Of a DNA stretch of 64,000 bases, positions 41,710 to 57,085 are shown one piece after another (within the stretch, counting starts at the first letter, position 1; every line of letters begins with the position of its first letter). The translations under genes and the position numbers were made by a program. The notes below the pieces were generated by a model. That model made no database searches and was not told the origin of the DNA. It saw only the letters and a list, made by a program, of their open reading frames with translations. Source of the DNA: an uncultured Planctomycetota bacterium (GTDB lineage Bacteria > Planctomycetota > Planctomycetia > Isosphaerales > Isosphaeraceae); the NCBI GenBank assembly GCA_963823665.1, contig CAWGMQ010000006.1, positions 1,568,001-1,632,000 on the forward strand. Direction: 5' to 3'.

Positions 41710-41788
41710 TTCCGGGTTTGATTCTACAATCTAACGGCCAACCAGGTATAGACTCAGCTTCAAGCTGTGCGCTATGCTGGGTGTACAT

Positions 41789-41864
41789 CGGGGCGTAGCG
41801 CAGCTTGGATTAGCGCGCTTGCTTGGGGTGCAAGAGGTCACCGGTTCAAATCCGGTCGCCCCGA
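41789..41864 (+). tRNA. tRNA-Pro (GGG)
   Basis: CGGGGCG/CGCCCCG acceptor stem, CTTGC-TTGGGGT-GCAAG anticodon arm, GGTTCAAATCC T-arm. Confidence 0.96.
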
Positions 41865-41866
41865 TT
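41823..41866 (+). repeat. attL core (3' half of tRNA-Pro)
   Basis: TTGGGGTGCAAGAGGTCACCGGTTCAAATCCGGTCGCCCCGATT, identical to 57042-57085. Confidence 0.95.
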
Positions 41867-41935
41867 AGTCGAAAAGCGTTACAGCTAAAGACTTACAGAA
41901 ACTCGACGCCGAGATCGCGGAAGCCAAATACCCTA

Positions 41936-41962
41936 AGTTACGGGGTAGTCTACCCCGTAACT
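41936..41962. promoter_or_regulatory. Perfect 13-1-13 palindrome, putative integrase arm or operator site
   Basis: AGTTACGGGGTAG-T-CTACCCCGTAACT; half-site recurs at 56947-56960 near attR. Confidence 0.55.
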
Positions 41963-41997
41963 CGAAATGCAACCATGCACTTTGGGGGTTTTGAGCC

Positions 41998-43215
41998 ATG
42001 CGACCGAAGAACATCATTCCCACCTACCGACTCCACCAGGCGACCGGGCAAGCTCGTTGCGTCGTCAACGGCAAGACTCACTACCTGGGACCGTACGAAA
42101 GCCCAGAATCCCGGCGCGAGTATGCACGCATCCTTACCGAGCTGGCGGCCGGTAACGGGGTAGTCGCTACCCCGATTCCGGCTCCGTCTGGTACCACGTC
42201 AACGCCCGCCACGTCTGTCTTCGTCTCTGAACTCATCTTAGCTTACAGACGGCATGCGGCGGAATATTACGTCAAGAATGGTCGCAAGACTTCCGAAGTC
42301 GCGATCGTGAAGATGGCAACTGACGTCGTCCACGAGTTGTACCAGCAAAGCCAGGTGACGGAGTTCGGCCCTCTGGCGCTCACGGCATGCCAGCAAAAAC
42401 TCATCGATCAAAAGCTTGCTCGCTCGAGCGTCAACAAGCTGGTGAATCGAATTCGCCTCATGTTCAAGTGGGGTGTCGCGCACCAGATGGTGCCAGAATC
42501 CGTTCATCGGGCGCTTGAGTGCGTCGAGGGGCTTCGCAAGGGACGGAGCAAGGCGACGGAATCGAGAAAGATTCGTCCGGTTCCCGACCAGATCGTAGGC
42601 AAGGCAAGCCCGTTCATGCCGCGGCAGGTGGCTGCGATGGTGCAGCTCCAATCCTTGACCGGGTGCAGGCCCGGCGAAATCGTCATCATCCGCGGGTGTG
42701 ACCTGAACATGAGTGGCAAAATCTGGGAGTACAAGCCGGCGGCATGGAAAACAGAACATCACGAAGACGTTGCCGAGCGAGTGATCTACATCGGCCCGAA
42801 AGCCCAGCGGGTTCTCAAACCGTGGCTCCGTCCCAATTTGAGCGACTACCTGTTCAGCCCGAAAGAAGCGCTTGCCGAGCTCAATGCTGAGCGGCGTGAA
42901 AGTCGCAAGACGCCCGTCTATCCCTCGCATCAAGCCCGCTACGAGCGCGAGAAGGCCCGCCGAGGCCGTCGACCAGATCACGACCACTACACCGTGGAAA
43001 ACTACCGCCAGGCAATCGAGCGCGCTTGCGAAAAGGCCAAGGTGCCAGCGTTCAAGCCGAATCAGTTGCGGCATAGCCTGGCAACCCGGCTCCGTCGAGA
43101 CTTTGGACTCGAGGCCACGGCGGCGGTGCTCGGACATGAGGAATTGGAAACCAGCCAGATTTACGCCGAGAAAGACGCGAAGCTGGCCAAGCAGGTGATG
43201 GGCAAGATCGGTTAA
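41998..43215 (+). CDS. Tyrosine integrase
   Basis: TGCRPGE, QLRH, LGH and IY catalytic motifs; adjacent to attL. Confidence 0.96.
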   Translation: MRPKNIIPTYRLHQATGQARCVVNGKTHYLGPYESPESRREYARILTELAAGNGVVATPIPAPSGTTSTPATSVFVSELILAYRRHAAEYYVKNGRKTSEVAIVKMATDVVHELYQQSQVTEFGPLALTACQQKLIDQKLARSSVNKLVNRIRLMFKWGVAHQMVPESVHRALECVEGLRKGRSKATESRKIRPVPDQIVGKASPFMPRQVAAMVQLQSLTGCRPGEIVIIRGCDLNMSGKIWEYKPAAWKTEHHEDVAERVIYIGPKAQRVLKPWLRPNLSDYLFSPKEALAELNAERRESRKTPVYPSHQARYEREKARRGRRPDHDHYTVENYRQAIERACEKAKVPAFKPNQLRHSLATRLRRDFGLEATAAVLGHEELETSQIYAEKDAKLAKQVMGKIG

Positions 43216-43317
43216 CATCAAGGCAGCGGGACGGCTCGAGCGATTGCAAGCGATCGAGCCAAGCGGTCTAGCCGGTGTGGCGTTCTCCCCTGTTCGCCAT
43301 GTCGGCTAGATCGGCCC

Positions 43318-43647
43318 GTGAAAACAGGGGTGCACGAGATGTCAGACAAGGATTTTCCACGGACCATTTCCGATATCCTGGCCATGCAGGAGGAAGCCGC
43401 CACTATCTGCCGCTTGATATCCGCTCAAATCGCAAATGAGCCCGCGGAATCTCCGAACGCGTCGCGCGATCGATACATCGTCAATGCGTACTTGGACGGC
43501 AAGTCATACGCAGACATTATTGAGGCCGTGAAACAAAAGCCACGGTGGTCAAGAATCAGTTCCGAGCCTGGCATCTTGCGCGTGATCAAGCGATATTGCA
43601 AAAAGAGGAACATAGACATAAAACTGCGCAATCAAAAGAAGAATTAG
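43318..43647 (+). CDS. Hypothetical, possible HTH regulator
   Basis: RDRYIVNAYLDGKSYADI..; basic C-terminus; lies between integrase and excisionase-like gene. Confidence 0.55.
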   Translation: MKTGVHEMSDKDFPRTISDILAMQEEAATICRLISAQIANEPAESPNASRDRYIVNAYLDGKSYADIIEAVKQKPRWSRISSEPGILRVIKRYCKKRNIDIKLRNQKKN

Positions 43648-43760
43648 CGCAATTTAGCGCCGTGCCAAACGTCGCGCTAAATCATGTCAATTGCAACTCA
43701 TCTCTTCATTTGTCATCTTGAATTCCAGTGGTACGGCACTCGTGCTAACTGGAGTTCAAA

Positions 43761-44110
43761 ATGTCCCGTCCGCGAATTCTTGACGAAGATCGATTGACGC
43801 TCGAAGAGGCCCGCGAACACTTCGGGACAAACGGAACGCCCGCTGATTTCACAACGGTCTATCGCGCCGTTGTCAAAGGCAGCGCTCTTCCAGACGGTGG
43901 TAGTCTGCACCTTGAGGCCATTCGGCTAGCAGGGCGATGGATCACGAGTAAGCAGGCGATTGAACGCTTTGTCGTCGCCTTGACCGAAGCATGGTCAGGC
44001 CGCGCACGAACGGGCCGAAGATCGCCACCAGGCGAGAGCGTAAACAGCTCTCCGACGCGGATGAAGCGCGGCTCGAGAGAGCAAATGCTGAACTGGCGGC
44101 GATGGCCTAA
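43761..44110 (+). CDS. DUF1580-like HTH protein, putative excisionase/AlpA equivalent (probable frameshift ~44020)
   Basis: LTLEEA...TVYR...G...LEAIRLAGRWITSKQAIERF; the alternative frame ends RLERANAELAAMA*. Confidence 0.75.
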
Positions 44111-44188
44111 CCGCGCAACGAAAACGGCCGGCCCGATGGTCAATCTTGCCGACCGTGTTCGTCATCTCATTCAGGAATACGGAACATC

Positions 44189-44503
44189 ATGAACGATACG
44201 CGACCAGATTCCGAGAAATCAAGATCCCTTACGGTGTCGCTTGCCGACCTGGCTGCGGAAATGACGCCGGAGCGCCGCGCACAACACGAAGGCGCTTATC
44301 GTCGGGGCGTTCATCAGGCTTTCGCGTTCGCAGCCGACGTCGCCTATCGAACGCGAGACGTGCGGGAGATTCGTCGCGTGTTGCGTCGGGCGGAGACGTT
44401 GGCGGGCGAGCTGAGATTCATCCGGAAGGATGAAGGTCGCGGCATGCTGCTGGATCACATCCGACAGCGGATCTACAGGCCGGCTCGGAAGGGGGCGAAA
44501 TGA
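44189..44503 (+). CDS. Hypothetical protein
   Basis: EGAYRRGVHQA motif; ATGA-coupled to the next ORF. Confidence 0.65.
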   Translation: MNDTRPDSEKSRSLTVSLADLAAEMTPERRAQHEGAYRRGVHQAFAFAADVAYRTRDVREIRRVLRRAETLAGELRFIRKDEGRGMLLDHIRQRIYRPARKGAK

Positions 44504-44724
44504 GGCCCCTATCCGGGCAGCAGAGTTTTCCGTTTGCTGCACCGACGCCCGCCGTCGCGGCCGCGGTGGTCGAAGATGGTCCACCGTGTTTGAAGTGCAA
44601 CCGGGCAACTGTCGTTTCCGGCGGCAAAGGCCCGCACTATAAGCGTGCCGATTGTCGCTCGTGTGGCGCGTGGTTCTGGATGCCAAAACCGAGGGCCGGC
44701 GGGCAAGGGGGCGCGTCGTCATGA
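44500..44724 (+). CDS. Small zinc-ribbon protein
   Basis: CLKC...GPH....CRSCG; ATGA overlaps on both sides. Confidence 0.7.
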   Translation: MRPLSGQQSFPFAAPTPAVAAAVVEDGPPCLKCNRATVVSGGKGPHYKRADCRSCGAWFWMPKPRAGGQGGASS

Positions 44725-47294
44725 CCTGCATGCTCGAGCGTTCCGCATTCGATACGGCACTACTGGCGCTTGACCTGGGGCTTTCGCCCGGTGTGCCGAT
44801 GCAAGACGGATCGAAGAAACCGGACGGGGCATGGAAGCAATACCAGACGAATCCAGCGACCAAGGGCGAGCTCGAGTCATGGTATCGGGACGGCCGAACG
44901 GGGGTCGGCTTGTTCACGGGATACGGCGACGCCGAATGTTTCGAGTTCGATTGCCGCGCGACCTATGACGATTTCTTGGACGCGCACGGCGACGCCGGGT
45001 TAACGGAATTGGTCGATCGCATCCGGTCGAACTATGAGGAATCCTCGCCAGGCGGTGGCATTCACTGGCTGTATCGGTGCTCGGAACGGCGGGGGAACAC
45101 AAAGCTGGCTGAACGGCCGGCGCCAACCGAGAGCGACCCGCACAAGACGGACGCGCTGATTGAAACTCGCGGAGAAGGCGGTTTTATCATCATCGCGCCG
45201 AGTAACGGGACGGTGCATCCGAGCGGCGGTGCATACAAACTCTTGAGCGGCGCACTCGGAATCATGGCAGTCATCACGCCGGAGGAACGCGACGCGCTCT
45301 GGAATTTCGCCCGGACGTTCGATGAAAAGCCAGAGCAGGCGACGGCGAAGTCGGGACCGTCTGAATTCGTTCAACGAGCATGGGATGGTCCGGCACGAAC
45401 GGACGGCAAGAAACCAGGCGAAGCCTTCAACGAGCAAATGACCTGGGAGGACATTCTCGAGCCGCACGGATGGACGGTGGCGTTTCGTCGGGGCGATAAG
45501 ACCTGGTGGCGGCGACCCGGCAAAGATCGCGACTGGTCGGCAACAACGGGGCATTGCAAAGGGCTCAAGGTCTTTTCGTCGTCCACGCCGTTCAGCACTC
45601 AGGGCACATACACCAAGTTCGGCGCGCACGCGATCTTGAACCACGGTGGCGATTTCAAGCAATCGACGAAGGCACTCGCCGCGGCTGGATTTGGTGAACA
45701 GTCGAGCCAGACCACGAAATCAACCCAGCAATCGCAGCCGACAGCACCGTCCGCGCCGCCGGTGTTTGATGGCGATCCGAGGCCGATCACGATCGCATTG
45801 CATCCGGTGCCGGAGCTCGATCCGCGCATGATCCCGCCGGTGTTCAGGGCATGGCTCGAGGATATTGCAGAGTGCGCATGCCTTCCGCTCGCCTATCCCG
45901 CGGCGGCGCTGTTCGTTGCTCTCAGCGGTCTGATCGGCCGGCGGGTTGCGATCCGTCCCAAGCAATTCGATGACTGGCTTGTCGTGCCGAATCTCTGGGG
46001 TGCCATCGTCGGGCCGCCGGGTTTCTTGAAGACCCCGGCAGTCGAGGCCGTCATGCGTCCGCTCAAGCGGCTTGTGGCCGATGCAATGGCAGAGCACGCC
46101 GCAAAGGTGAAGGAGCATAACGAGCGCCAGCTTGTCGCGACGGCTCGAAGGAAGGCCGCGCAGAAGAACCTGGACGCGGCCGCCAAGAAACCAGACGCGA
46201 CGGAAGCGGACCTGCAAGCACTCGCCAAGATTGCCTTGGCAGACGACACAGAAGAAGAACCGACGTGCAAGCGGTATCTCGTGAACGATTTCACGATCGA
46301 AAAACTGGGTGAATTACTGGTCGAGAACCCGAACGGGTTGACAGTGTTCCGAGATGAGTTGACCGGGTTGCTCAATACGCTGAATCGTGAGGGTCACCAG
46401 AGCGACCGGGGTTTTCTTCTCGAATCGTGGAACGGCAACGGGTCTTACACGTTCGATCGGATCGGCCGGGGCACTCAGCACATACCGGCGGCATGCCTGG
46501 CGCTCTTCGGGACCATCCAGCCCGGACCGCTCGCCCGGTATATGCAAGGGACCATCAAGGGCGATGAGGCGGACGGGTTTATCCCGCGGTTCCAGGTGCT
46601 CGTCTATCCGGACCCGCCGGCAAGCTATGACTATGTTGACCGATGGCCGGACAACGTGGCGAAGAACCACGCTTACAAAGTCTTCAAGGCAATCGACGAA
46701 TTGAACGCGGCGGAGAAAGGATGCAAGGTCGACAGCGACAGCGGGTTTCCCGTCATCAATTTCACACCAGAGGCGCAAGCGTTTTTCAACGGGTGGTATA
46801 CCGACCTGCAACGGCGAATCCGAAGCGGCGAGTTGACGGATATCCTGGCGGCGCATCTTGCGAAGTATGGCTCTTTGATGCCGAGCCTCGCTTTGATCTT
46901 TTATCTCGCGAATGACTGCCAAGCGTTCCAGCTTGGTGGCGTTCCGCTCGAAGATGCGGAAATGGCGGCGGCGTGGTGTGAGTATCTCGAGCAACACGCG
47001 CGGCGGGTCTACCTGCTATGTGCCGATGGCGACGTATCGGTTGCCGGGTCCCTCGCAGAGCGGATCAAGGAATCGCTGCCTGACCCGTTCACGTATCGCC
47101 AGGTGGCACAGAAGGGATGGTCAGGCCTGGGGACGGTGGACGACGTGGAAAGGGCTGTAGGCATCCTGGAAGACCGCGAGTGGGTCAAGACGGTCGAGGT
47201 TAAGTCGGGCGATGCGGCCGGACGGGGCAGACCATCGGTGAAGGTGCACATCCACCCGAAGCTTCGATCCGCCGGCGAAGGGGTGTCGTCATGA
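44721..47294 (+). CDS. Bifunctional primase/polymerase fused to DUF3987 (YfjI-like) helicase-like domain
   Basis: WKQYQ, FEFD, SPGGGIHWLY, IETRGEGG..I.APS; then PNLWGAIVGPPGFLKTP, RDELTG, FGTIQP, DGFIPRF. Confidence 0.9.
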   Translation: MTCMLERSAFDTALLALDLGLSPGVPMQDGSKKPDGAWKQYQTNPATKGELESWYRDGRTGVGLFTGYGDAECFEFDCRATYDDFLDAHGDAGLTELVDRIRSNYEESSPGGGIHWLYRCSERRGNTKLAERPAPTESDPHKTDALIETRGEGGFIIIAPSNGTVHPSGGAYKLLSGALGIMAVITPEERDALWNFARTFDEKPEQATAKSGPSEFVQRAWDGPARTDGKKPGEAFNEQMTWEDILEPHGWTVAFRRGDKTWWRRPGKDRDWSATTGHCKGLKVFSSSTPFSTQGTYTKFGAHAILNHGGDFKQSTKALAAAGFGEQSSQTTKSTQQSQPTAPSAPPVFDGDPRPITIALHPVPELDPRMIPPVFRAWLEDIAECACLPLAYPAAALFVALSGLIGRRVAIRPKQFDDWLVVPNLWGAIVGPPGFLKTPAVEAVMRPLKRLVADAMAEHAAKVKEHNERQLVATARRKAAQKNLDAAAKKPDATEADLQALAKIALADDTEEEPTCKRYLVNDFTIEKLGELLVENPNGLTVFRDELTGLLNTLNREGHQSDRGFLLESWNGNGSYTFDRIGRGTQHIPAACLALFGTIQPGPLARYMQGTIKGDEADGFIPRFQVLVYPDPPASYDYVDRWPDNVAKNHAYKVFKAIDELNAAEKGCKVDSDSGFPVINFTPEAQAFFNGWYTDLQRRIRSGELTDILAAHLAKYGSLMPSLALIFYLANDCQAFQLGGVPLEDAEMAAAWCEYLEQHARRVYLLCADGDVSVAGSLAERIKESLPDPFTYRQVAQKGWSGLGTVDDVERAVGILEDREWVKTVEVKSGDAAGRGRPSVKVHIHPKLRSAGEGVSS

Positions 47295-47326
47295 AACACT
47301 TGGATGCACTCAATGCCAAGCGGGGT

Positions 47327-47537
47327 GTTTCTGTAGTTTCTGTAGGCAGTTCCGGACATAGATATGAAGAAAAAACGGACTATAAAATATCTTACTTACT
47401 TACCTTACCTACCTTACTAAATAACCACATAGGTGCGCGGATAGAAAAACTTACTCATTCCTTTGGCCAGGTGCCTACAGAAACTACGAAACCCGTCGCC
47501 AAATCGGAACGAATCGATTCTGTAGTTTTCGTAGGCA
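47327..47537. other. Putative replication origin (iterons plus AT-rich core)
   Basis: TTCTGTAGTTTCTGTAGGCA-like units at 47327, 47472 (inverted) and 47518 around an AT-rich CTTA/CCTTA tract, right after the primase. Confidence 0.65.
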
Positions 47538-47625
47538 AAACGTGGGAACAAGAGCAACTCGACTCCACTCCGGCGGCAGGGCGGAGTCGAGCAACCAAAC
47601 ACGCCGCAAAAGGAAGGCAAGCACC

Positions 47626-47862
47626 ATGAGGATCACTCTGAACAATCCGAGCAACGTCACACTGGGCCGATGTCTGGATGATGACGCTGTGAGCATCCAA
47701 TTCAAGGACGGCGACAACACGGTCGAAGTGTGGGTCGGCAACGTCCAGGCGCTGGGGCTCTCAGTCGCTTTGCGGGACTGGGCCAAGCGCTCGCAGGAGA
47801 ACGAGGCTCTGGCCATGTGCGATTACAAGATCGGCAACAGGGAACCCGCCGGTGTCTTCTGA
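47626..47862 (+). CDS. Hypothetical protein
   Basis: AGGAAGG upstream of the ATG; 78 aa. Confidence 0.5.
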   Translation: MRITLNNPSNVTLGRCLDDDAVSIQFKDGDNTVEVWVGNVQALGLSVALRDWAKRSQENEALAMCDYKIGNREPAGVF

Positions 47863-47942
47863 CGAACACACAGGGCATGCGGGCCAGCCCGGCGCTCAAG
47901 CCTACTTCCCTTGGGCGTCGGGCTGGGATGGGAGACGTGACG

Positions 47943-48164
47943 ATGGCCACAGCACCAACAGCAGCACACACCAGAGCCAGGCGGGCATACAGCCCGGTGG
48001 AGTCGAGCGAGCCGATGAGTGATGAGGATCTCTACCACAAGAAGCGGGAAGGGTGGGCGCTGGTTAGCCGGCACGAACGCATGGGTAGGAACATGACTAC
48101 CTACTGGGTGTACATCTTCGAGCGGGACCCGCGCGTGAAGACGGAGGCGCGAACGTCATGGTGA
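47943..48164 (+). CDS. Hypothetical protein
   Basis: GGAG upstream; REGWALVS...YIFER. Confidence 0.5.
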   Translation: MATAPTAAHTRARRAYSPVESSEPMSDEDLYHKKREGWALVSRHERMGRNMTTYWVYIFERDPRVKTEARTSW

Positions 48165-48447
48165 GCGCATGCAGTCGCGTGTTCAAGTGCAGACGGGGGT
48201 ATGGGGGGGTATGGCTAGGCTAGGCGGGGCGGGTCAACACCTAGAAGTTGTGCGCCGTAAACCGCAGGTGGCCAAATCCGTGCTTGCAATCAGGTTTTTG
48301 CTTCGTTGCCAGGATTCAGCCATGACACAACCCGATTAAACCCCGATTCTGACGCCCATACGCCTCGTGGAGACGTTTTCAGGGGCGAAACCACCTAACG
48401 GTCGGCTTGATCGATTACCGCCACGTGGACCATTTGAGGGACCCGCA

Positions 48448-48816
48448 ATGAGCACAGCCAAGAACCTGAAGATTCGACCGGCGAACCCGGACCCGCCATC
48501 CCACTTGTCCAACAAGGCCGCGGAAATGTGGCGCGCGATGGTCGCCGATTACCGCATGGCAGATGACTGCGTCGGGCTCGGCTTGCTTGAGGCCGCGCTA
48601 TCTGCCTTCGACCGGGCCGAGGAGGCGCGAGAGGTTCTTGACAGGGAAGGTCTGACCGTCAGCGGCGACCGCGGCGGGTCAAAAGCTCACCCGTTGTGTG
48701 CGGTCGAGCGCGACAACCGAGCAGCTTACATCGCGGGGATCAAGGCGCTCAGATTCGACGTCGTCGCAGCGCGGCCGGGACCTGGACGTCCAGCCGGCCC
48801 GGCGCGGAGGTACTGA
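48448..48816 (+). CDS. Phage terminase small subunit, P27 family-like
   Basis: PPSHLS..A..MW...LLE..L..FDR...A..VL.REGLTV..DRGG.KAHP...ERD.R. Confidence 0.85.
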   Translation: MSTAKNLKIRPANPDPPSHLSNKAAEMWRAMVADYRMADDCVGLGLLEAALSAFDRAEEAREVLDREGLTVSGDRGGSKAHPLCAVERDNRAAYIAGIKALRFDVVAARPGPGRPAGPARRY

Positions 48817-48818
48817 CC

Positions 48819-49253
48819 ATGTCAACCCAACGGTATCAATCCCGACGACCTGGGGGCGCGGCGGTGGAGCTGGATCGACTCGCCGAGTTCATGATTTTGG
48901 AAGCGCCCAATTCCGAGGGGCTGGACGAGGCGTTCGTCGCGGATTGGTGGGCGCAGAACGGCGAGCGCATCACCGAGGAGTGGATCGCCAGGCATCCCGG
49001 CTCGCGTCCGTGGCCGTGGTGGTGCTGGGATCACGGCAAGGAAAGGCCCGTCATCAACCCTGACCACGATCCCGCCTGCGATTTTGCCGTCAGGCGAGAT
49101 TCGTTTTTTGGCTTCGTTCACTCCGGAGTGTTTTCCGTCCAGCGCGGAGCGGACGGAAAGCTCTCTCATTCACCGTGGCAGGAACCCGAAGCAGACTACC
49201 TTGACCGCCGCGGTCTTTTGACGGAGACGGAACGGGAGCATTTTGACCTCTAA
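48819..49253 (+). CDS. Trp-rich hypothetical protein between terS and capsid gene
   Basis: GGAGG before the ATG; WIARHPGSRPWPWW and EADYLDRRGLLT..E. Confidence 0.7.
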   Translation: MSTQRYQSRRPGGAAVELDRLAEFMILEAPNSEGLDEAFVADWWAQNGERITEEWIARHPGSRPWPWWCWDHGKERPVINPDHDPACDFAVRRDSFFGFVHSGVFSVQRGADGKLSHSPWQEPEADYLDRRGLLTETEREHFDL

Positions 49254-49256
49254 CGC

Positions 49257-50612
49257 ATGAGTTTTCGATCACGTTTCAACCCTGATTTTCACCGAGAGAG
49301 GAAAACACCTATGAGTGCTTTGCAAACGAGAACCCGCCGGCGCGACACCATTCCCAAGGGCGGCGACCGGCTGGTTGACGACGAAATCGAGGACGCCTTC
49401 GGCGGAGACGGACCCAGCGACCCCGACCCGACGCAGCCCGACAATTCCAAGTTCGGCCAGCTTCCCGGATTGAAGGCGCTCTACGACGCTGCGAAGAAAG
49501 GCTACTTCTACAGCTTCGGCCGGGCGATCCACGGGGCTTTCAAGGCCGGACCGAACGGCACGCTTCCCGGACTCGAAGGCGAAGTCTCTCAGGAGATGTT
49601 GCTTCGCGCGCCCAATCAGCGGCGTGGTTACCGGGTGCCCTGGGTTTATCCGAGGCGTCCGGGCGAGCGCCGCGCCCTAACGTTGAGCGCCGGCGCAGGA
49701 AGCGTTACTCCGCAGCTTCAATCTCCCGTGGATGTTTTGCGCTCCAAGATGGTGTGCCAGCGGCTCGGCGCGAACGTCACCAACTTCACGGGCGAAGGAC
49801 CGCAAGGATTTATTCAAATCCCATTCAGATCGGCCGGCAGTACGGCGAGCTGGGTTGCCGAAAATGCGGCGCCGTCATCGTCCAGCAACGCCACGACGCA
49901 GGGGTGGGTCATGAAACCCAACACCGTCACGGCCTACTCGGACATCACGCGCCGGATGTTGACTCTCGGTCAGGAAGGATTTGAAGCCTACTCGCTCGCG
50001 GAGGTCATGCGATCAATCGCAGTCGAGGTCGATCGCGCGACGCTCAACGGCTCTGGTCAGAATTCGCAGCCCCTGGGAATCCTGCAAGACTTCCTGCCCA
50101 GCGTGACTCCCGCGGCTGGGCTGGGTGGTTCGATCGCCATCGCGGACTTGTACGAAATCGAGGCGACGCTTGGCCAGAATAACGGCGACGCGCCCGCCGA
50201 TTCTCGACTCGGCTGGGTCACCTCTCCCGCGGGCCGCAAGGCTCTGCGAAAAGTCGACCTGGGCGGCGCCACGGACACCGGGCACCCGGCGTGGTGGCCG
50301 AAAACCTACATCGTCGACAACAAGCCGGTCATTATCGAGGAATTGATCGGATGGCCGGCCCTTTCGACGTGTTCGGTGCCTGCCAACCTGAACGCTTCAA
50401 ACTACACGACGCTCGCTCTGGGTAATTGGAACGATGTGATCATCAATTTATGGGATGGCTTCGATTTCAACGCCATGCCCGCCACGGTAGTTAACCCCTT
50501 CCTTCAGAGCGTTTCGGGTGTCGTGCGCGTAAGTTGCTTTGTTGACGCCGACGTGTTGCTTGTTCGACCGGGTTCATTCTGTCTCTGCGCCGGCTGGGCG
50601 GCGCCGTACTGA
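49257..50612 (+). CDS. HK97-fold major capsid protein (probable start 49311)
   Basis: YSFGRAI..EVSQE, ASWVAEN..P, TVTAYSDITRRML, IAVEVDRATLNGSG..QPLGIL, GNW, VNPF. Confidence 0.88.
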   Translation: MSFRSRFNPDFHRERKTPMSALQTRTRRRDTIPKGGDRLVDDEIEDAFGGDGPSDPDPTQPDNSKFGQLPGLKALYDAAKKGYFYSFGRAIHGAFKAGPNGTLPGLEGEVSQEMLLRAPNQRRGYRVPWVYPRRPGERRALTLSAGAGSVTPQLQSPVDVLRSKMVCQRLGANVTNFTGEGPQGFIQIPFRSAGSTASWVAENAAPSSSSNATTQGWVMKPNTVTAYSDITRRMLTLGQEGFEAYSLAEVMRSIAVEVDRATLNGSGQNSQPLGILQDFLPSVTPAAGLGGSIAIADLYEIEATLGQNNGDAPADSRLGWVTSPAGRKALRKVDLGGATDTGHPAWWPKTYIVDNKPVIIEELIGWPALSTCSVPANLNASNYTTLALGNWNDVIINLWDGFDFNAMPATVVNPFLQSVSGVVRVSCFVDADVLLVRPGSFCLCAGWAAPY

Positions 50613-50651
50613 TTCCTTTTCCTGATCGCAACCTTTTCGGAGACTCTCATC

Positions 50652-51189
50652 ATGACGGAAGCGGAAGAACAAGCGATGTTCGACAAGATGGTGGCACTGC
50701 GGGCCTGCGCCGCCTTGCAGGGTCCGTTTGACCGATCGCTGCAAGGGATTCCTGCGCGGACTCGTTTGGAAAACGACCGGCGACGAAGTGGAGCTCTCGG
50801 TACCCGAGGCGCAGGCACTGTGCGACAAGGGGCACGCCGAACCAGTCGGGCCGGCGGCTTGGTTCAAGAAATTCGTGGCTGCGATAAGGCCAGCACCCGA
50901 GGGACCGCCACGGCTCGACAAGCCAGGCCCGGGCCGAAGTTATCGAGGCCGAATGCGTCCAGGGAAGTCGTACTGGTACGCCGCCGGGCTCGAGTCCTAC
51001 GGTGACGATCGAGATATCTGGATCGACGAGGATACCGCGCGGGTGCTTGCGAATGCTCGCCAGTTTCAGCCGATCGAACCCAACTATATCCCGCCGGCGC
51101 CGGAAACGCCGGTCAAGCCAACCTGGCCGACGAATCAGTGGGGTTGCTCACCGATGGTCGGGCCGCCGCTTGGGCAACCTGAACACTGA
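50652..51189 (+). CDS. Hypothetical protein after capsid gene (probable frameshift ~50735)
   Basis: GGAG start at 50652; two GD.VE/I...A..L motifs reminiscent of small capsid-adjacent phage proteins. Confidence 0.5.
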
Positions 51190-51297
51190 ACCATCCGGGA
51201 CCGGCTCGGCGGTGGCCACGGGCTTAACCCTTTCGGCTCGTGGCGCCGTCGGGCCGGACCTGGATTCACATGAACGCTTTTCATAAAGGTCACGATC

Positions 51298-51465
51298 ATG
51301 ACTCAGACCACGAAAACCATCGAGTCAGCGACCAAGACTCCCGCACAACCGGCCGCTGCAATCCGATACCCGCTGTGCAGGTGCGGCAAGTCGTCGAGTC
51401 ACACGGCAAACAGACCCGGCGACGAAATCGTCGGCACATGCTCGGAGTGCGAGGCGAAAAAATGA
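51298..51465 (+). CDS. 55-aa Cys-containing microprotein (not in the ORF track)
   Basis: AAGG upstream; MTQTTK...LCRCGK...TCSECEAKK*. Confidence 0.5.
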   Translation: MTQTTKTIESATKTPAQPAAAIRYPLCRCGKSSSHTANRPGDEIVGTCSECEAKK

Positions 51466-51611
51466 ATCCCACCAGGCCGGCGAGAGGGTGTAAGGAGAAT
51501 GAACAAAGCGGACAAATGTTGCCAACGTCCGTTTGCCCTGATCGCCGCGCCTGGACTTTCACACGAACAACCAGAGGACACAGGCCATGAGTCAAACAGC
51601 GAACGCGGAGC

Positions 51612-51965
51612 TTGCCAGGGCGGCTCCAGTCGGCAATCTCGAGCGATCCCACATGCCGGGTGTGCCGCAAGAGAACAGCGACGGAGTTCGAGTCGAGCGG
51701 CGGAAAAATCACGGCGATTGTGTGCGCCGAGTGCTCGGAAGACATTCAGGAAACCAGAGCTCTCGCCAACGGCTCATGCGAAGCGCGTAGGGACATGCTT
51801 CGCCACCAGACCGCGTTCAGAGCGGCGAAAGTATGCAGCGTCTGCCGGACCGGCAAGCCCGCGGGAACGACGACGAATGACTACGGCGGCATTATCGTCA
51901 CGTGTAAATCGTGCCAGGAGAAAGCCCGGACGAGGGAAAGGGCTATGAGGTTATCGCGTGCGTGA
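51612..51965 (+). CDS. Double zinc-ribbon protein (start uncertain)
   Basis: CRVC, CAEC, CSVC, CKSC. Confidence 0.6.
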   Translation: MPGRLQSAISSDPTCRVCRKRTATEFESSGGKITAIVCAECSEDIQETRALANGSCEARRDMLRHQTAFRAAKVCSVCRTGKPAGTTTNDYGGIIVTCKSCQEKARTRERAMRLSRA

Positions 51966-52206
51966 CTACGCCGAAATCAACGCCGACATGCAGGAAGCGC
52001 GTCGGAAACTGCAAGAGATCGACATGCAGCTCTCGCAGCTCTCGGCGACGGCGCGGAACAGCCCTTTCGGCCGAGAGTTTGGCGGCTACCGTGAACAGCT
52101 CTTGGCGAAACTTCGGGACCTGCGCGCCGAATTGCTGGCAACGGCAGAGGACGAGTCGAAGTGCCGGCGAGAGGGAACGTTCAAAAGAGTCGAGGGGGCG
52201 GCATGA
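51958..52206 (+). CDS. Small coiled-coil hypothetical protein
   Basis: Overlaps its neighbours in operon fashion; heptad-like Leu pattern. Confidence 0.5.
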   Translation: MRDYAEINADMQEARRKLQEIDMQLSQLSATARNSPFGREFGGYREQLLAKLRDLRAELLATAEDESKCRREGTFKRVEGAA

Positions 52207-52366
52207 TCAACCAGAAGTCACCACATCAACCCGAGGCCCGACGAACAATCGCCTATGACGCTCGCAAGTCACAGGCCGCGCGTGGGCTCGGATCAACTCC
52301 ACCAGAGCGACCGCCGCTAAAAGAGCGCCTCGAGCGGCTTCGCCACAAACAGGAAACCGGCAAATC

Positions 52367-52564
52367 ATGATGCAACTGTACCCGCCACTCAGCGTTGAGA
52401 TCATTGGCAAGGGACCTGCTCTCGCGGTCGGCGCGATCGACCACGGGGCAGGCCACGAATTGACGTTGGTGGTGATCGCCAAGGCAGACGGGGCGATCAC
52501 AGCGGAGCCGATATCGAAGCTCAGAGGCGCCGGGGTTTACGTGACGGGCGAGCAAAAACCATAA
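52367..52564 (+). CDS. Hypothetical protein
   Basis: AGGA upstream; ATGA overlap with the preceding small ORF ending 52370. Confidence 0.5.
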   Translation: MMQLYPPLSVEIIGKGPALAVGAIDHGAGHELTLVVIAKADGAITAEPISKLRGAGVYVTGEQKP

Positions 52565-52654
52565 AATCCCGAATATCTATCGGGTGCTTATGGGTTTGCA
52601 GCCTCAAAAACATGGGGAAAATCGGGGTCGAGTAGCTTCTGAGGAACCTGGACG

Positions 52655-52864
52655 GTGACGATGCGAATAAAATCGAAACAACAGCCGAGGCCCGAGGCGC
52701 CGACGCCGGACCCGCGCGGGGACTTCGGGCCACGTTGTGACGACTGTCAGGCAGTGACGACTATTCGGGCCAGCGACGCCGGACCGGTCGCGGTGTGTCA
52801 GTGTGGGGCGGTGAAAGCCCTGCGGCGGCGGGGTGGGTTGCGTCGTCCAGACGCCTCGCCATGA
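52655..52864 (+). CDS. Small zinc-ribbon protein
   Basis: CDDC...CQCG. Confidence 0.45.
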   Translation: MTMRIKSKQQPRPEAPTPDPRGDFGPRCDDCQAVTTIRASDAGPVAVCQCGAVKALRRRGGLRRPDASP

Positions 52865-53058
52865 GGCCCGAGGCGCTTCGGTCGAGGGATTCGGCGGGCG
52901 CGCTATCGCATCGCAGGGGATTGGGACATTTGTCGTTCGCGGTGTTATACTAATGAGCAGTGTGCGCCCAGATAGGCGGTTGCAAAATTTGCCGAGTCAC
53001 GTAACATCACTTAGGGTCTAACGAAGTTGTTTCTAACTAATCTATTCGGAGTGCCTCG

Positions 53059-53727
53059 ATGTCGAAAGACTCCGACTTATTCGGTGTTGTCGTAATCGGG
53101 GCAATGAACCCGCGAATTCATCATCCGGCGTGGTACCAGTTGGTAAAACTGATTAGCGGCCAAGAAGCAGAACATGCCACCCAAACGCAGCCAGTCGTGT
53201 GTACTCCAGCGTATTCCCAATTCGGACTGGGCGAGATCGATATCAAGTGTCTACCCGACCGATGGGACATAACAACCCGATCGAGCGCGAACATCGATCG
53301 AATCCGCGAAATCGCACAACGGCTGTTCGACGATGTGCTCCTGCACACTCCGGTAAACATCGTGGCGCTAAATTTCGAGTACGTCCGTCAGGTTTCCGGT
53401 GCAAACGCAACGGAGATTATCGCTCGGAAGTTGAACGTCGCGGCCGGGGAGTTGGGCCTGGGCAATGCGGAGGCGGGTGATCTTTTTCTAAAGCGAGCCC
53501 TTGTGACGAACGAATCCGTGCAAGGAATCGCGACTGTCATAGTACGGACTGCGGACAGCTCGGATATGTTCGGGCTTTCTTGCAATTATCAATATACGAT
53601 AAGGCTTAGCGACGGACTGTTTCGGTTCGACGCGTTTCTGCCCGAATATGCACAGCGTGACCGAGTTGACGCGGAACAATCACTAGCGCGACTGACATCC
53701 GCGATAGCTTCCGCGCGAAAGGACTAA
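53059..53727 (+). CDS. Cargo gene 1, TIGR04255-like hypothetical
   Basis: VVVIGAMNPRI.HP.W...LHTPV...LNF; GGAG before the start; more AT-rich than flanks. Confidence 0.65.
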   Translation: MSKDSDLFGVVVIGAMNPRIHHPAWYQLVKLISGQEAEHATQTQPVVCTPAYSQFGLGEIDIKCLPDRWDITTRSSANIDRIREIAQRLFDDVLLHTPVNIVALNFEYVRQVSGANATEIIARKLNVAAGELGLGNAEAGDLFLKRALVTNESVQGIATVIVRTADSSDMFGLSCNYQYTIRLSDGLFRFDAFLPEYAQRDRVDAEQSLARLTSAIASARKD

Positions 53728-53730
53728 CCC

Positions 53731-54336
53731 GTGGCCATTGCGATCCAAATGCCGACATCTTTGAAGAACGAAAATCTTTTCGCCGAAACAATGGATACTT
53801 GGCAGTCAATCGAGACGGCTCTCGTGGACTGCTGGCGCATGTTCGGCGGCGCTCCAGTCTCGCCAGCGATCTCGGTGCAGGGAGCGCTGGAACGGAGCGC
53901 GGACCAAGCCCAAATCCTCCACGACCACGCCTTACGTTTGTCCGGTAGGCTTATGGTTCACAAACAATTGGAGCGAGTGCGGCGACTGCGGCAAAACTGG
54001 GACGGCGACGGTGCCGATCCGATCAACCCGGCGATCATCGCAACAGCCAGCCGATTCCTTGCTAAGTTCGGAGACAGCTTTCGCACTTCGCCGCGCGTCG
54101 TTCCAATGACAATGGGTCGAGTTCAATTGGAATGGCATCGGGGCAACCGTTCGCTGGAAATCGAATTTGAGACGCCTGAACTTGTACACTATCTGAAGTG
54201 GGATAGCGACGAGGCCATCGAAGAGGAAGAACTTATCCCTGCTTCGTCGGAAGTCGCTATTAGAAATCTACTGTTGTGGTTCTCCTCGGAGAAGAGGAAT
54301 GCCGATCCCGCCGGACGCAGGTCCACAAGTGCCTGA
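53731..54336 (+). CDS. Cargo gene 2, NWDGxGA-motif hypothetical
   Basis: L..NWDGDGADPI...PRVVP...GRVQLEW.....LEIEF; starts 3 nt after gene 1. Confidence 0.7.
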   Translation: MAIAIQMPTSLKNENLFAETMDTWQSIETALVDCWRMFGGAPVSPAISVQGALERSADQAQILHDHALRLSGRLMVHKQLERVRRLRQNWDGDGADPINPAIIATASRFLAKFGDSFRTSPRVVPMTMGRVQLEWHRGNRSLEIEFETPELVHYLKWDSDEAIEEEELIPASSEVAIRNLLLWFSSEKRNADPAGRRSTSA

Positions 54337-54700
54337 TTTCGAGAATGTACTTAGAGGAATAGTCGACGAAATGCAATGGGATTGTGAAAGCGACTGTCCC
54401 TCGAGCGCTGCCTTCGATAAGGCGATATTCTCTGTGGATCGAAGCGCGCTTACTACGCCGCCGGAAACTGTCGCCAGACTTCGCTCGTTTGGCATGTCAG
54501 TTCTAGCCTTGGTGGAGTTCAACTGTGGAGAGGCGAGGAAACATGGTTTTGATACGCGGGACGAGCGCGACGATGTGGCTCCTGATAACGCCGCGCACGC
54601 GCATGTCTACAATTTGTGGTACACCGAAGAGTCAACCAAAGCCGGGCGCAAGAAAAAAGCCAGAAAAATGAAGGATATCTGCTCAAAAGTGACGTTCTGA
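54299..54700 (+). CDS. Cargo gene 3, putative ADP-ribosyltransferase-fold toxin
   Basis: E.VLR...PSSAAF....SVD...DN.AHA.V pattern; overlaps gene 2 by 38 nt. Confidence 0.55.
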   Translation: MPIPPDAGPQVPDFENVLRGIVDEMQWDCESDCPSSAAFDKAIFSVDRSALTTPPETVARLRSFGMSVLALVEFNCGEARKHGFDTRDERDDVAPDNAAHAHVYNLWYTEESTKAGRKKKARKMKDICSKVTF

Positions 54701-54819
54701 TGACTGCCAAGGCGTTTCGCGCTTCCCACTGCGCCCGCTCAATCGCAATCGAACCATCGGGCGCAAAGAACCGGCTGCAAGATCCCAGTGGGAAGGTATG
54801 GTCCGCGCCGAGCTCATGG

Positions 54820-55029
54820 CTACGGATCGGGCTCGAGCACAACCGTCCCGTCCGCTCGTTCGATCGCGATACCCCAGCGGCGCGAGGTGTGACCAGACGG
54901 GAGCGGATCTCCGCTTATCTCGTCCACGTGGTAACGACCCGGCTCGCTCGAGCGAATCGCGGGCTCAAGCTGGTCGATGGTATCGACGTCGACGATGGGC
55001 TCTTGTCCGTTCTGGGTGATTCTGAACAT
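54820..55029 (-). CDS. Small hypothetical protein
   Basis: PGRYHVDEISGDPLPSGHTSRRWG. Confidence 0.6.
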   Translation of the reverse strand: MFRITQNGQEPIVDVDTIDQLEPAIRSSEPGRYHVDEISGDPLPSGHTSRRWGIAIERADGTVVLEPDP

Positions 55030-55057
55030 CGGCGTTCTATTACTGAAAGACCATGTC

Positions 55058-55342
55058 TCAGCCTCGGAACCGGGAGAAGCCTCGCCAATGAACCGCTACC
55101 GAGATAATCCAGCACACCACGAAAAAGACCGGCATCCATGCTAATATATAACCGCGCCGGGGGGCCTCGCCCGTCATGGTGTGGATGGCGTCCCAACCGC
55201 AAATGGTCCAAAAGATAGCTGTTACCAGGCCTACGAGTGAAATGCCTGCTTTGAGTGGTTCCGTGTTAGCGGCTCCTAGAGCGGCGACAAGTATCGTGGC
55301 CGCAAGCAAGAAAATCTCGGAGAGTTTGAATAGATCGTCCAA
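55058..55342 (-). CDS. Small three-TM membrane protein
   Basis: AAGGAG before the TTG start; three hydrophobic segments. Confidence 0.6.
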   Translation of the reverse strand: MDDLFKLSEIFLLAATILVAALGAANTEPLKAGISLVGLVTAIFWTICGWDAIHTMTGEAPRRGYILAWMPVFFVVCWIISVAVHWRGFSRFRG

Positions 55343-55460
55343 TTCGGGCTCCTTGATTGAGCGAAAGTTCGTCGAGTCCCGATGCCGTAGTCAATATGCG
55401 GGTGGGCGAGCGTAATCACAAGACGGTAGCAGTGCAAAAAGAAAAGTTGATTGCCACCTG

Positions 55461-55547
55461 AAGAACCTGCCGGTCGCGAAGGAGCGGATGTACCTGGCGG
55501 GGTTAAGGCTGGCGAGGGTCCTCAACGAGGCGTTGGCCGATGAGTGA
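55461..55547 (+). pseudogene. Orphan C-terminal helix of an S1/P1 nuclease
   Basis: KNLPVAKERMYLAGLRLARVLNEALADE* matches the family C-terminal AG.RLA..LN motif; no start. Confidence 0.6.
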
Positions 55548-55569
55548 TCAAGATGGCGCACGGGGTGGG

Positions 55570-56135
55570 TTACTGTCGACCAGCAGGGGAGATGACCCCG
55601 AAGAATAATATCAGGATGAACACGACCGGCACGGCAAAGGCGAGCCCCAAAAGTATCGCCTGCTGCAGATCAGGTAGGACCTGGAACCAGGCCCACGGGC
55701 CGGGCTGAATGCCTCTTGCGAGATAGACGGTGTTTTGTCTGGCGCACCGACTTTTGTATCGTAGGACAACTGACTGCCAGCATGACACAGTGCGCTTCCA
55801 GCATGACACGGCGCATGCCGCTATCGCCTTAGCGAATCGCCGCACTTGTTCGCGCTGCGCTTTATCTCGCGCCTAGTCGCCTCTGCGGACGCCGTTGAAG
55901 ATTGGACGAGGTTATATCCGCAAGATCGGCAGTGCGTTCGCGATCCCTTCAGGGAGATCTGCCTGCCGCAAACGGGGCAGTAGGGAAGTCCGTTCCTCCA
56001 GACCGCGTTCTGACTTTTGTTGATCGCTTGTATCACCGCGATGACGCAAGCTGCCAGCGAAAGCAGTACCACGATCAGAGCGACGACGGGGTTCTCTTGG
56101 TGCTTCGCGGCGAACAAGACCACGCTTGTCAACAT
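55570..56135 (-). CDS. Membrane-anchored zinc-ribbon protein (probably one gene, frameshift ~55845)
   Basis: TM + CPVC...CRSC in ORF 55821-56228; C-terminal TM in ORF 55570-55845. Confidence 0.5.
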
Positions 56136-56594
56136 CGTGGTTCTCCAACCGGGGCTGGCGGCCCGCAATCGCTTACAGGACGGCTTGAGGCAAGCATGGG
56201 ATGCCCGGGCCGCTACCTGGCAGGCCAACGCCCGGGCTGGCGGGGTTCATGATCGCGCCAGCGCGAGAGTGAAGTACCTTCGAGCGCGACGGCGCACCAA
56301 TCCGGCCGAGCACCTTAGGATCCGCCTGGCTCCGCGGGCCGGACGGTATCTAGTTTCGCTGAGCGGAAGGGGCATCGCAAGCGGGTGGAGTTGTCACGCC
56401 CGAGGCCCTATACGCTCGCCAGGGGCGTCCGCGGTGCTCTGGACGTGGAAAGCGTCGGCCAGGCGCTCTGAATCGCTGTCAAAGGGCTATGGATGGCTGG
56501 ACGCCCGGACTTCGCTCACGTGAACCCCATCCGCTCACCTAAGGATTCGTACGCCTTGCGATGGGCTTCGACGTATAGCTCAGTTTGGTGAGCG

Positions 56595-56846
56595 TCATAT
56601 CCGGTTCTCGTCAGCTTGTTCCTTGGCGAATTCGATTGCCTGGGCCGACAGGACGTCAAACATTTCCCTCTGGGTCTTCCCAAGCAAAGGTGCTGCGAGC
56701 ACGGCCATCTGCCCGTTGAATCGCACTCCGTGAAAAATCTCGTTCAGGAATGCCTCTCGCTGCTCGGGGGTTCCATTCATCCCATTGCGGCGAAACTCGA
56801 ACATCTTTTGTTCCAATTCCCTGCCCAGCGTCCACCAATTCATCAT
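56595..56846 (-). CDS. Hypothetical protein near attR
   Basis: Strong AAGGAGG before the ATG; 83 aa. Confidence 0.6.
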   Translation of the reverse strand: MMNWWTLGRELEQKMFEFRRNGMNGTPEQREAFLNEIFHGVRFNGQMAVLAAPLLGKTQREMFDVLSAQAIEFAKEQADENRI

Positions 56847-57041
56847 TCCTCCTTGCGGTGCATCCCGCGGATGACGGCGGCGCTAATCAATCGGGGTAAC
56901 TACCCTAAAACCCTACCGATTACCCAATAATATCGCAAATGAGAGCAGTTTCGGGGTAGTATTGCAAATGGGCGAAAACTACGGTATTATGCTGCATTTA
57001 TAGGGTATTTCGATTCTGACTCACAGGGGTTTCGGGGTTCT

Positions 57042-57085
57042 TTGGGGTGCAAGAGGTCACCGGTTCAAATCCGGTCGCCCCGATT
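57042..57085 (+). repeat. attR core (duplicated tRNA-Pro 3' half)
   Basis: 44/44 identical to 41823-41866; the tRNA 5' half is absent. Confidence 0.95.

Follow-up and report, generated by a model that had tools for sequence, protein, structure and literature searches.

Phage satellites of the phage-inducible chromosomal island (PICI) type are recognized by SatelliteFinder from an integrase, an AlpA/MerR/Stl regulator, a primase, a capsid gene and a small terminase (PMC10085698), and more than 99.9% of the PICIs found with this tool belong to Proteobacteria or Firmicutes (PMC10085698). Here we describe an element at positions 41823-57085 of a 64,000-nucleotide stretch (the window) of contig CAWGMQ010000006.1, assembly GCA_963823665.1, from an uncultured soil bacterium of the family Isosphaeraceae, phylum Planctomycetota; a planctomycete host had rightly been guessed in the initial annotation, made from the letters alone. 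The element is real and apparently intact; it belongs to a group of Isosphaeraceae elements distinguished by a capsid protein that lacks the scaffold. We consider it likely to be a helper-dependent, cos-type PICI-like satellite of the HK97-like cos phages of Isosphaeraceae, since it combines an exact pair of attachment (att) repeats at a tRNA gene, the core gene set, the lack of other late genes, a capsid clade of its own and a narrow size range among relatives. Capsid-encoding phage satellites would thereby be extended to Planctomycetota. As the initial annotation had supposed, no characterized satellite of this phylum was found in the literature searched, where subscription papers and supplements (such as SatelliteFinder host tables) might list one; the string 'planctomycet' is absent from the accessible text of PMC10085698, PMC10111431, PMC9618062 and PMC13669383.

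The Gram-negative PICIs EcCICFT073 and PmCI172 (type A) likewise combine a tRNA-type att site, an integrase, a small helix-turn-helix (HTH) protein, a primase and an origin with capsid and terS genes in a variable late zone, all in one direction within 10-20 kb, and likewise lack portal, connector, tail and holin genes (PMC6092414, PMC10085698, PMC10111431). The element of the window differs from them in the DUF1580-like protein standing in for AlpA/MerR/Stl, in the Prim-Pol-DUF3987 replication protein, and in terS preceding the capsid gene with a Trp-rich open reading frame (ORF) between the two; it is also larger than their 9.5-kb median.

For the capsid protein, a parallel is provided by Ccm of SaPIbov5, which has a delta domain of 87 residues vs 128 in the capsid protein of its helper, takes up the pentamer positions, produces heads of T=4 and does not assemble into capsids by itself (PMC8569155). 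SaPIbov5 shares with the window element an HK97-like capsid homologue with a shortened delta domain, a cos-like site and a T=4-sized genome, while its helper phi12 shares with the Isosphaeraceae prophages a protease and a scaffold fused to the capsid protein; the likeness of Ccm to the window capsid is at the fold level, and phi12 is prolate (PMC8569155). Unlike SaPIbov5, the window element is unidirectional and encodes a TerS of its own. Staphylococcus aureus pathogenicity islands have divergent stl/str regulation. A working principle may also be shared with Rpp of E. coli PICIs, a satellite protein which joins helper TerS and switches packaging (PMC6739421); the window protein is instead a P27-family TerS homologue, likened to Rpp by principle only.

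Three other assignments were rejected. Capsid-forming PICIs (cf-PICIs) likewise possess an integrase, a regulator, a primase, an HK97 capsid protein and TerS (PMC10085698), but they also encode a TerL, portal, protease, head-tail adaptor and connector of their own; the window element has none of these and therefore cannot build its own head. EPIPs of Mycolicibacterium are small satellites with terS, capsid and tape-measure genes, the latter as in six of the seven complete relatives described below (PMC12822802); they have a serine integrase, an adaptor and a stopper, whereas the window element has a tyrosine integrase and no tape measure. An intact HK97-like prophage was dismissed because the terS-terL-portal-protease-capsid-connector-tail operon is missing and the length is not 30-38 kb.

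Organization and ends of the element

The features on which the comparison rests are as follows.

41788-41865, + strand: tRNA-Pro(GGG), the integration target (ARAGORN, Rfam), adjoining host pyrF
41823-41866, + strand: attL core, 44 bp, an exact copy of attR
41998-43215, + strand: tyrosine integrase, 405 aa (PF00589, E=8.5e-14; phrog_1)
43761-44110, + strand: DUF1580-like or excisionase-like HTH protein in the AlpA position, frameshifted near 44005 in the window
44721-47294, + strand: Prim-Pol + DUF3987 primase/replicase, 857 aa from ATG (Pfam, PHROGs)
47329-47537, no strand: putative replication origin with three 16-20-bp iterons, two of them inverted around an AT-rich spacer
48226-48295, + strand: merely suggestive candidate for a cos-type packaging site, with G run, ACCGCA and T run, in front of terS
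48448-48816, + strand: P27-family small terminase (TerS), 122 aa (phrog_83, E=4e-10)
48819-49253, + strand: Trp-rich ORF, 144 aa, no family
49311-50612, + strand: HK97-fold capsid paralogue, 433 aa (PF05065, E=1.9e-20; TIGR01554 over cut-off)
57042-57085, + strand: attR core, 44 bp, with a sugar-transferase gene next

The exact 44-bp direct repeat (41823-41866 = 57042-57085), spaced by 15,219 bp start to start, bears out the att repeats around ~15.3 kb given in the initial annotation and is the 3' part of tRNA-Pro(GGG) as called by ARAGORN. In the same-genus genome G029 (G-numbers denote family genomes, L-numbers loci or contigs, and X-numbers soil sequencing runs) a different 15.5-kb element, with an integrase 52% identical to that of the window, occupies the same pyrF-tRNA-Pro site, and the same sugar-transferase gene follows its attR, which confirms the boundaries in the window. 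Among 21 pyrF-tRNA-Pro loci of the family that were examined, 10 have a related integrase directly after the tRNA gene and six a second att copy within 20 kb; the site is an integration hot spot. The earlier description of the element as complete thus holds for its ends and does not extend to activity.

The core functions, from integrase to capsid, are all encoded on the + strand in the order typical of PICIs, as proposed initially, although the regulator is weakly scored. Four of the five parts of the PICI definition are present, namely the att-site integrase, the primase-replicase (Prim-Pol, E=1.6e-8; DUF3987, E=1e-82), the capsid gene and TerS, and the iterons foreseen as an origin lie directly 3' of the primase gene. 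For the fifth part, AlpA/MerR/Stl, there is no Pfam match; the DUF1580-like HTH protein at that position scores 13.9 bits against PF07618 (cut-off 24.4, E=0.044), though it is 34% identical (E=6e-6) to a true PF07618/HTH_17 protein of the same genome. The replacement of AlpA by DUF1580 is plausible, though weakly scored; homologues of the gene hold the same position in L045 and L124, and no paper on DUF1580 was found in the literature searched. TerS matches TIGR01558 at E=3.4e-7, below cut-off, and is also under the Pfam cut-off, but reaches E=7e-19 against a profile of 24 family TerS. Since regulator and TerS both score under curated cut-offs, profile-based tools would likely miss these elements.

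None of the 33 ORFs matched TerL, portal, protease, adaptor, closure, HNH, tail or tape-measure families in Pfam and PHROGs, nor was a holin found among them with these databases; when 14 late-gene profiles built from related prophages were run unfiltered against 372 six-frame pieces, only TerS and the capsid gene matched. Hence neither the large terminase, portal, protease and tail genes that had been noted as missing nor any of the parts barred by the PICI definition (portal, connector/adaptor, tail, holin) is present according to Pfam, PHROGs and the late-gene profiles. As TerS and the capsid protein are encoded while packaging motor, portal and tail are not, the element most likely rides in particles of other phages, and its helper dependence is inferred on this ground.

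The putative origin comprises a perfect 16-bp inverted repeat (47333-47348/47472-47487) around a spacer of 63% AT and a third copy at 47518-47537. The primase has 65-69% homologues in sibling elements of the same genome and of G029; identical iteron text lies downstream of the homologous primase in L125 and L170, and other primases in L037 and L038 are followed by different iterons.

The capsid paralogue and its distribution

The capsid assignment made initially was upheld by the Pfam match and by a structure model (pLDDT 71.7, 32-sequence alignment) whose best fold match is 8gta (E=1e-17). The model resembles HK97-fold capsid proteins, those of tailed phages standing on top and encapsulins also appearing among the fold matches; the top sequence matches are tailed-phage capsids as well, the closest isolated phages being 24-27% identical. 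Prophage capsid proteins of the family start with a two-helix coiled coil, in place of which the window protein has an acidic low-confidence segment; the inner part of the delta region is retained in it, as is the arginine that precedes the mature arm. Like Ccm, it is an HK97 homologue with a shortened delta domain. Up to the conserved Arg it has 121 residues, compared with 133-270 in 25 prophage capsids and 42-98 in 11 other clade rows (one clade row has 169).

The short capsids group in a single clade (support 99/99) in a tree of 41 rows and, in a 189-row FastTree that left out near-duplicates, rows below 330 aa and the last 37 representatives, in a clade of 70 rows (support 94). Fewer than 95 residues precede the conserved GLE motif in 66/70 clade rows vs 5/119 outside rows. 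A heptad (coiled-coil) test on the N-termini was positive in none of the 13 scorable clade members (four clade rows were not scorable) vs 13 of the 23 scorable prophage capsids. Judging from these sequences, the clade has lost the coiled-coil scaffold of the prophage capsids.

With the capsid profile, 36 matches were obtained in 24 of 120 further genomes of the family; 33 of them, in 32 regions, were examined, to the exclusion of three on short contigs. A complete HK97-like prophage (P27 TerS, TerL phrog_9, portal phrog_12, protease, capsid, connectors, tail) occupies 19 of the regions, and TerL and portal are lacking in the other 13. The clade of the window capsid occurs in nine of these 13 regions and in 0/19 prophages, and none of the nine loci has TerL or portal genes. 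Att repeats delimit seven of these nine elements, at lengths of 14.2-16.6 kb; the other two run into contig edges. The seven lie at tRNA-Gln, -SeC, -Pro(GGG), -Pro(TGG) (twice), -Arg and -Lys, i.e., at five tRNA species. Of six prophages of the family that were examined, five are delimited by att repeats, with lengths of 30.2-37.6 kb. Multiplied by (4/7)^1.5, the prophage sizes give 13.0-16.2 kb, close to the satellite range.

Conservation of gene order, proposed initially as a check, was found in part. G090 is the best match to the window, with the same tRNA, integrase, HTH-position gene, primase, iterons, terS, capsid and DUF7210-type gene; integrase and replication genes of G107 and G109 are at the far end, and overall the order in the family is only partly conserved, being modular rather than fixed. 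Elements with related integrase or primase also carry TerL, which indicates that the left half (integrase, HTH, primase, origin) is common to several hijacking modules; a comparable sharing between PICIs and cf-PICIs is described in PMC10085698. Tape-measure proteins of 500-680 aa are encoded in L002, L034, L035, L036, L037, L047 and L048 (14-17 kb, without TerL and portal), and in L035, L036 and L047 also a tail assembly chaperone; by analogy with the proposal for EPIPs, these genes suggest tail-length hijacking. L037 (G001b) is inserted with a 42-bp repeat at a tRNA called SeC(TCA) by ARAGORN, and attR of L048 is closely followed by a 22-gene tRNA array (L048:15570-17923). Islands L124, L145, L146 and L170 carry an integrase, a primase and their own TerS and TerL, no portal being detected, and L124 also encodes a different HK97 capsid.

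Outside the family, capsid matches at E<=1e-60 were found in 7/327 class genomes. Of the eight regions concerned, five have TerL and portal, one has a connector-tail run at the contig start, and L178 and L182 are without TerL but with long-type capsids outside the clade; the short-capsid clade was thus not found in these genomes beyond the family. A single-sequence capsid scan of viral contigs gave nothing, and none of the capsid profiles recognized the 364-aa ORF that takes the place of the capsid gene in sibling G029b.

Complete phage head operons that include a pair of capsid genes, one belonging to the short clade, were found in L070 (8875-15673), L003 (4901-10985), L075 (1-6076), L200 (9211-16775) and L221 (1-2059); L069, L198 and L199 have the operon as in L070. 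The second, short gene lies before terL, after terL or after the major capsid gene. Three of these phages were placed in the tree: their second copies group together (100/99) within the satellite capsids, adjacent to that of the window, and their major capsids make up a clade with the same branching; duplication of the phage's own capsid gene was rejected by the tree test (p-AU 0.004). The simplest reading of the tree would be one capture of a satellite-type capsid gene followed by retention, the direction depending on the root and on the sparse context of the nearest kin. If such phages acquired the gene from the satellite clade, a parasite's gene would have passed to its helper.

Probable helper dependence, packaging and rival readings

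The packaging genes bear on how a helper could be used. The TerS annotated initially as P27-like was recovered; it is 40% identical to TerS of satellite L037 (G001b) and 32% to that of prophage L042, and a match at E<=1e-8 was found in one of the 120 family genomes. The acidic-hydrophobic C-terminal tail of TerS probably docks TerL. In the alignment this tail is visible in nearly all 19 prophage rows and missing from the window TerS and its 40% relative. The Trp-rich ORF behind it has one other homologue at 56%, a weak homologue after terS in L037 (so that G001b has the TerS + Trp-rich pair) and one weak match among 400 phylum genomes; its assignment to SMI1/KNR4 was not accepted (Atlas scores <0.9).

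In HK97-like phages cos sites lie before terS, where the family prophages have a G-run/ACCG/T-run motif. The pattern of the candidate site at 48226-48295 occurs once in 64 kb and in 0/100 shuffles, having been drawn up after this site was seen; the same post-hoc pattern also matches the cos-like sites of G107 and G109, with spacing equal to that in the window. A helper cos profile, built from 8 of the 19 prophage pre-terS regions picked by pattern, places matches immediately 5' of the capsid module in the satellites G107, G109, L002 and G093, and with a second profile the window candidate ranked third of six (E=4.8, weak). A helper-like site is clear in G107, G109 and L002 and weak for the window element. 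Satellites and candidate helper prophages are both supplied by the family; G109 holds one of each, with cos-like sites 80% alike over 96 nt. L035 (G109) and L036 (G107) have three cos-like sites each, two direct and one inverted, flanking the structural module.

We propose that an incoming or induced helper would switch on the single rightward transcription unit, whereupon the integrase and the DUF1580-like HTH protein would excise the 15,219-bp circle, restoring tRNA-Pro, and the Prim-Pol/DUF3987 protein would replicate it from the iteron origin. More tentatively, in the form given here, TerL, portal, protease, capsid and tail would be borrowed from the helper, the tail-less TerS in a mixed oligomer with helper TerS (Rpp-like) perhaps directing packaging to the cos-like site. 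By analogy with Ccm of SaPIbov5, the scaffold-less paralogue, which keeps the inner delta region and the cleavage arginine, might then co-assemble with the helper capsid protein and bias heads to T=4, fitting 15 kb and excluding the 30-38-kb helper genome; we regard such a head-shrinking role as evenly poised between true and false. It would provide a second natural case of a shortened scaffold domain controlling HK97 head size and bears on what PICI capsid genes do. A wider scenario, which we offer as speculation and think rather doubtful, is a whole Isosphaeraceae satellite family built on an ancient scaffold-less T=4-setting capsid, an independent invention of the Ccm principle, mostly with a tape measure resetting tail length as well, from which one lineage of helper phages took over the paralogue in a single event, retaining it as vertex protein or counter-measure; a phage would then have domesticated a satellite's hijacking gene.

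A number of observations weigh against the satellite reading or against head shrinking. The check for excision proposed initially revealed neither the attP/attB junction in four of seven listed low-depth soil runs (contigs only, depth mostly <5) nor an empty attB, with tRNA-Pro joined directly to the sugar-transferase gene, at any of the 21 family loci; a 1,587-bp skip in one contig, whose short side comprises 21 letters, was dismissed as noise. No helper prophage was found in the element's own genome (91.9% complete), which has one PF05065, no PF03354, no PF04860 and three other TerL genes outside prophages, so the helper must come from outside or have been lost. The cos-like site of the window was not picked up by the helper cos profile. 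Independence among the seven relatives is incomplete, two being from G001 and those of the sister genomes G107 and G109 close to each other; P27 TerS precedes the capsid gene in only two of them, and six carry a tape-measure gene, some also a tail chaperone, neck gene, HNH or protease gene. Three elements with a related integrase at the window's tRNA site (G029, G062, G045) carry TerL of other families, and TerL is also present in the sibling L170 of the window's own genome, whose primase is 65% identical. The capsid clade is not exclusive to satellites, being present as a second gene in full phages. The size scaling assumes T=7 for helper heads, from HK97 geometry, and a full head could just as well hold a dimer of 28-33 kb. 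In EcCICFT073, moreover, interference persisted after deletion of the capsid gene, and the packaged DNA had phage length (PMC6092414).

The last two points lead to a variant within the satellite reading itself, to which we attach a smaller but substantial probability: dimers would be packaged in normal heads, and the paralogue would be a minor head protein, an assembly poison or dispensable cargo. Capsid genes occur in 21 of the 29 reference Gram-negative PICIs yet are dispensable for transfer (PMC10111431), and obligatory shrinking is difficult to reconcile with a phage lineage in which an intact paralogue persists alongside the phage's own capsid gene; the narrow 14.2-16.6-kb range vs 30-38-kb helpers and the parallel with the shortened delta domain of Ccm speak for shrinking. 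It is unlikely that the element is a decayed or deleted prophage which lost its motor, portal and tail genes. The tape-measure and other late genes of the relatives, the TerL-bearing elements at the same tRNA and the presence of clade capsids in full head operons fit such a history. The initial annotation had named relatives with terL, portal or tail genes as the observation that would point to it; tape-measure genes and same-site TerL were indeed found, while TerL and portal are missing from all nine clade loci. Moreover, the att pair and integrase are intact, no remnant of the lost genes is left in six frames, the 14-17-kb size recurs at five tRNA species, the capsid forms a clade of its own instead of being nested among prophage major capsids, and a satellite-type primase-origin module directly precedes terS.

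An autonomous mini-virus or encapsulin-like element, in which the scaffold-free HK97 protein would make small shells alone, with neither portal nor tail, seems very improbable to us. Scaffold loss is the encapsulin state, and PMC13669383 describes mini genomes that possess an integrase and an HK97 protein but neither portal nor tail; their mean size, however, is 8.75 kb and a terminase gene is lacking, Ccm does not form capsids by itself (PMC8569155), TerS and the cos-like site point to motor-driven packaging, and tailed-phage capsids head both the fold and the sequence matches. Least probable of the readings weighed is an integrative replicating island, no longer or never mobilized by phages and kept for its cargo, with TerS and capsid as passengers or anti-phage decoys. 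The lack of a helper in the genome agrees with it, a TerS without tail and a capsid protein without scaffold might each be a dominant-negative inhibitor, and the cargo has a partial defence-model match; against it, elements with homologous primase or integrase occupy many sites and genera and would need a vehicle, and no conjugation gene was found with Pfam and PHROGs.

Remaining features and assembly errors

43226-43319, + strand: two-hairpin non-coding structure after the integrase (z=-3.4; no Rfam family)
43318-43647, + strand: 109-aa ORF, no family match
44189-44724, + strand: two small ORFs, 104 aa and a 74-aa Cys-rich Zn-ribbon-like one, no family above cut-off
47626-48164, + strand: two small ORFs, 78 and 73 aa, no family
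50652-51189, + strand: post-capsid ORF, ~178 aa, weak DUF7210-like repeats (PF23843, E=0.021), frameshifted near 50706
51298-52564, + strand: cluster of small Cys-rich and coiled-coil ORFs, no family
52556-52663, no strand: non-coding stretch, 108 nt, 91% identical to sibling element G029b
53059-54700, + strand: three-gene cargo module, GC 0.54-0.56
55821-56846, - strand: two small cargo ORFs, one membrane + Zn ribbon, one of 83 aa (ORF list, Pfam)

Two minor gene calls of the initial annotation stand as reading frames without a family: the 'regulator' at 43318-43647 matched nothing in Pfam, PHROGs, NCBIfam or PADLOC, and the Zn ribbon is a Cys-rich, Zn-ribbon-like ORF scoring above no cut-off. 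The two-hairpin structure occurs in 3/120 other family genomes, is common to elements in G029 and G045 and shows a two-sided change at 3/35 pairs among only three sequences; it is a possible candidate for a regulatory RNA or terminator. A promoter and terminator scan performed no better than on shuffled sequence.

DUF7210-bearing ORFs directly follow the capsid gene in L034, L002 and L035, and their profile gives the window ORF only E=0.39. The last ORF of the Cys-rich cluster has a 41% homologue in L170. In the cargo module, gene 1 lies near TIGR04255-named clusters (0.95) and gene 2 matches PADLOC PDC-M32A at E=1.3e-9 over ~100 aa; the same three genes, 52-60% identical, recur elsewhere in G029. 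As far as these matches suggest, the module is possibly defence or toxin-antitoxin-like.

Two core genes are frameshifted in the window, at ~44005 and ~50706. A frame-restoring indel is present at the former in contigs of runs X1 and X3 from two studies and at the latter in one contig of X1 only; the best short-read run may be the source sample, and so checks letters, not independent occurrence. Single-base indels against short-read contigs were found in pyrF (40789-41709) near 40939 and at 44005, 50706, 54758, 55871 and 56605. The frameshifts at 44005, at 50706 and in host pyrF are probably assembly errors, and in view of such long-read-type indels apparent pseudogenes in this assembly are to be distrusted.

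Elsewhere in the same genome, isolated terS-terL pairs lie among host genes near tRNA-Ala (L172:15399-17028 and L174:17122-18745), with no other phage gene detected in 40 kb. A 185-nt stretch of the element (56204-56388) recurs at several places in G029.

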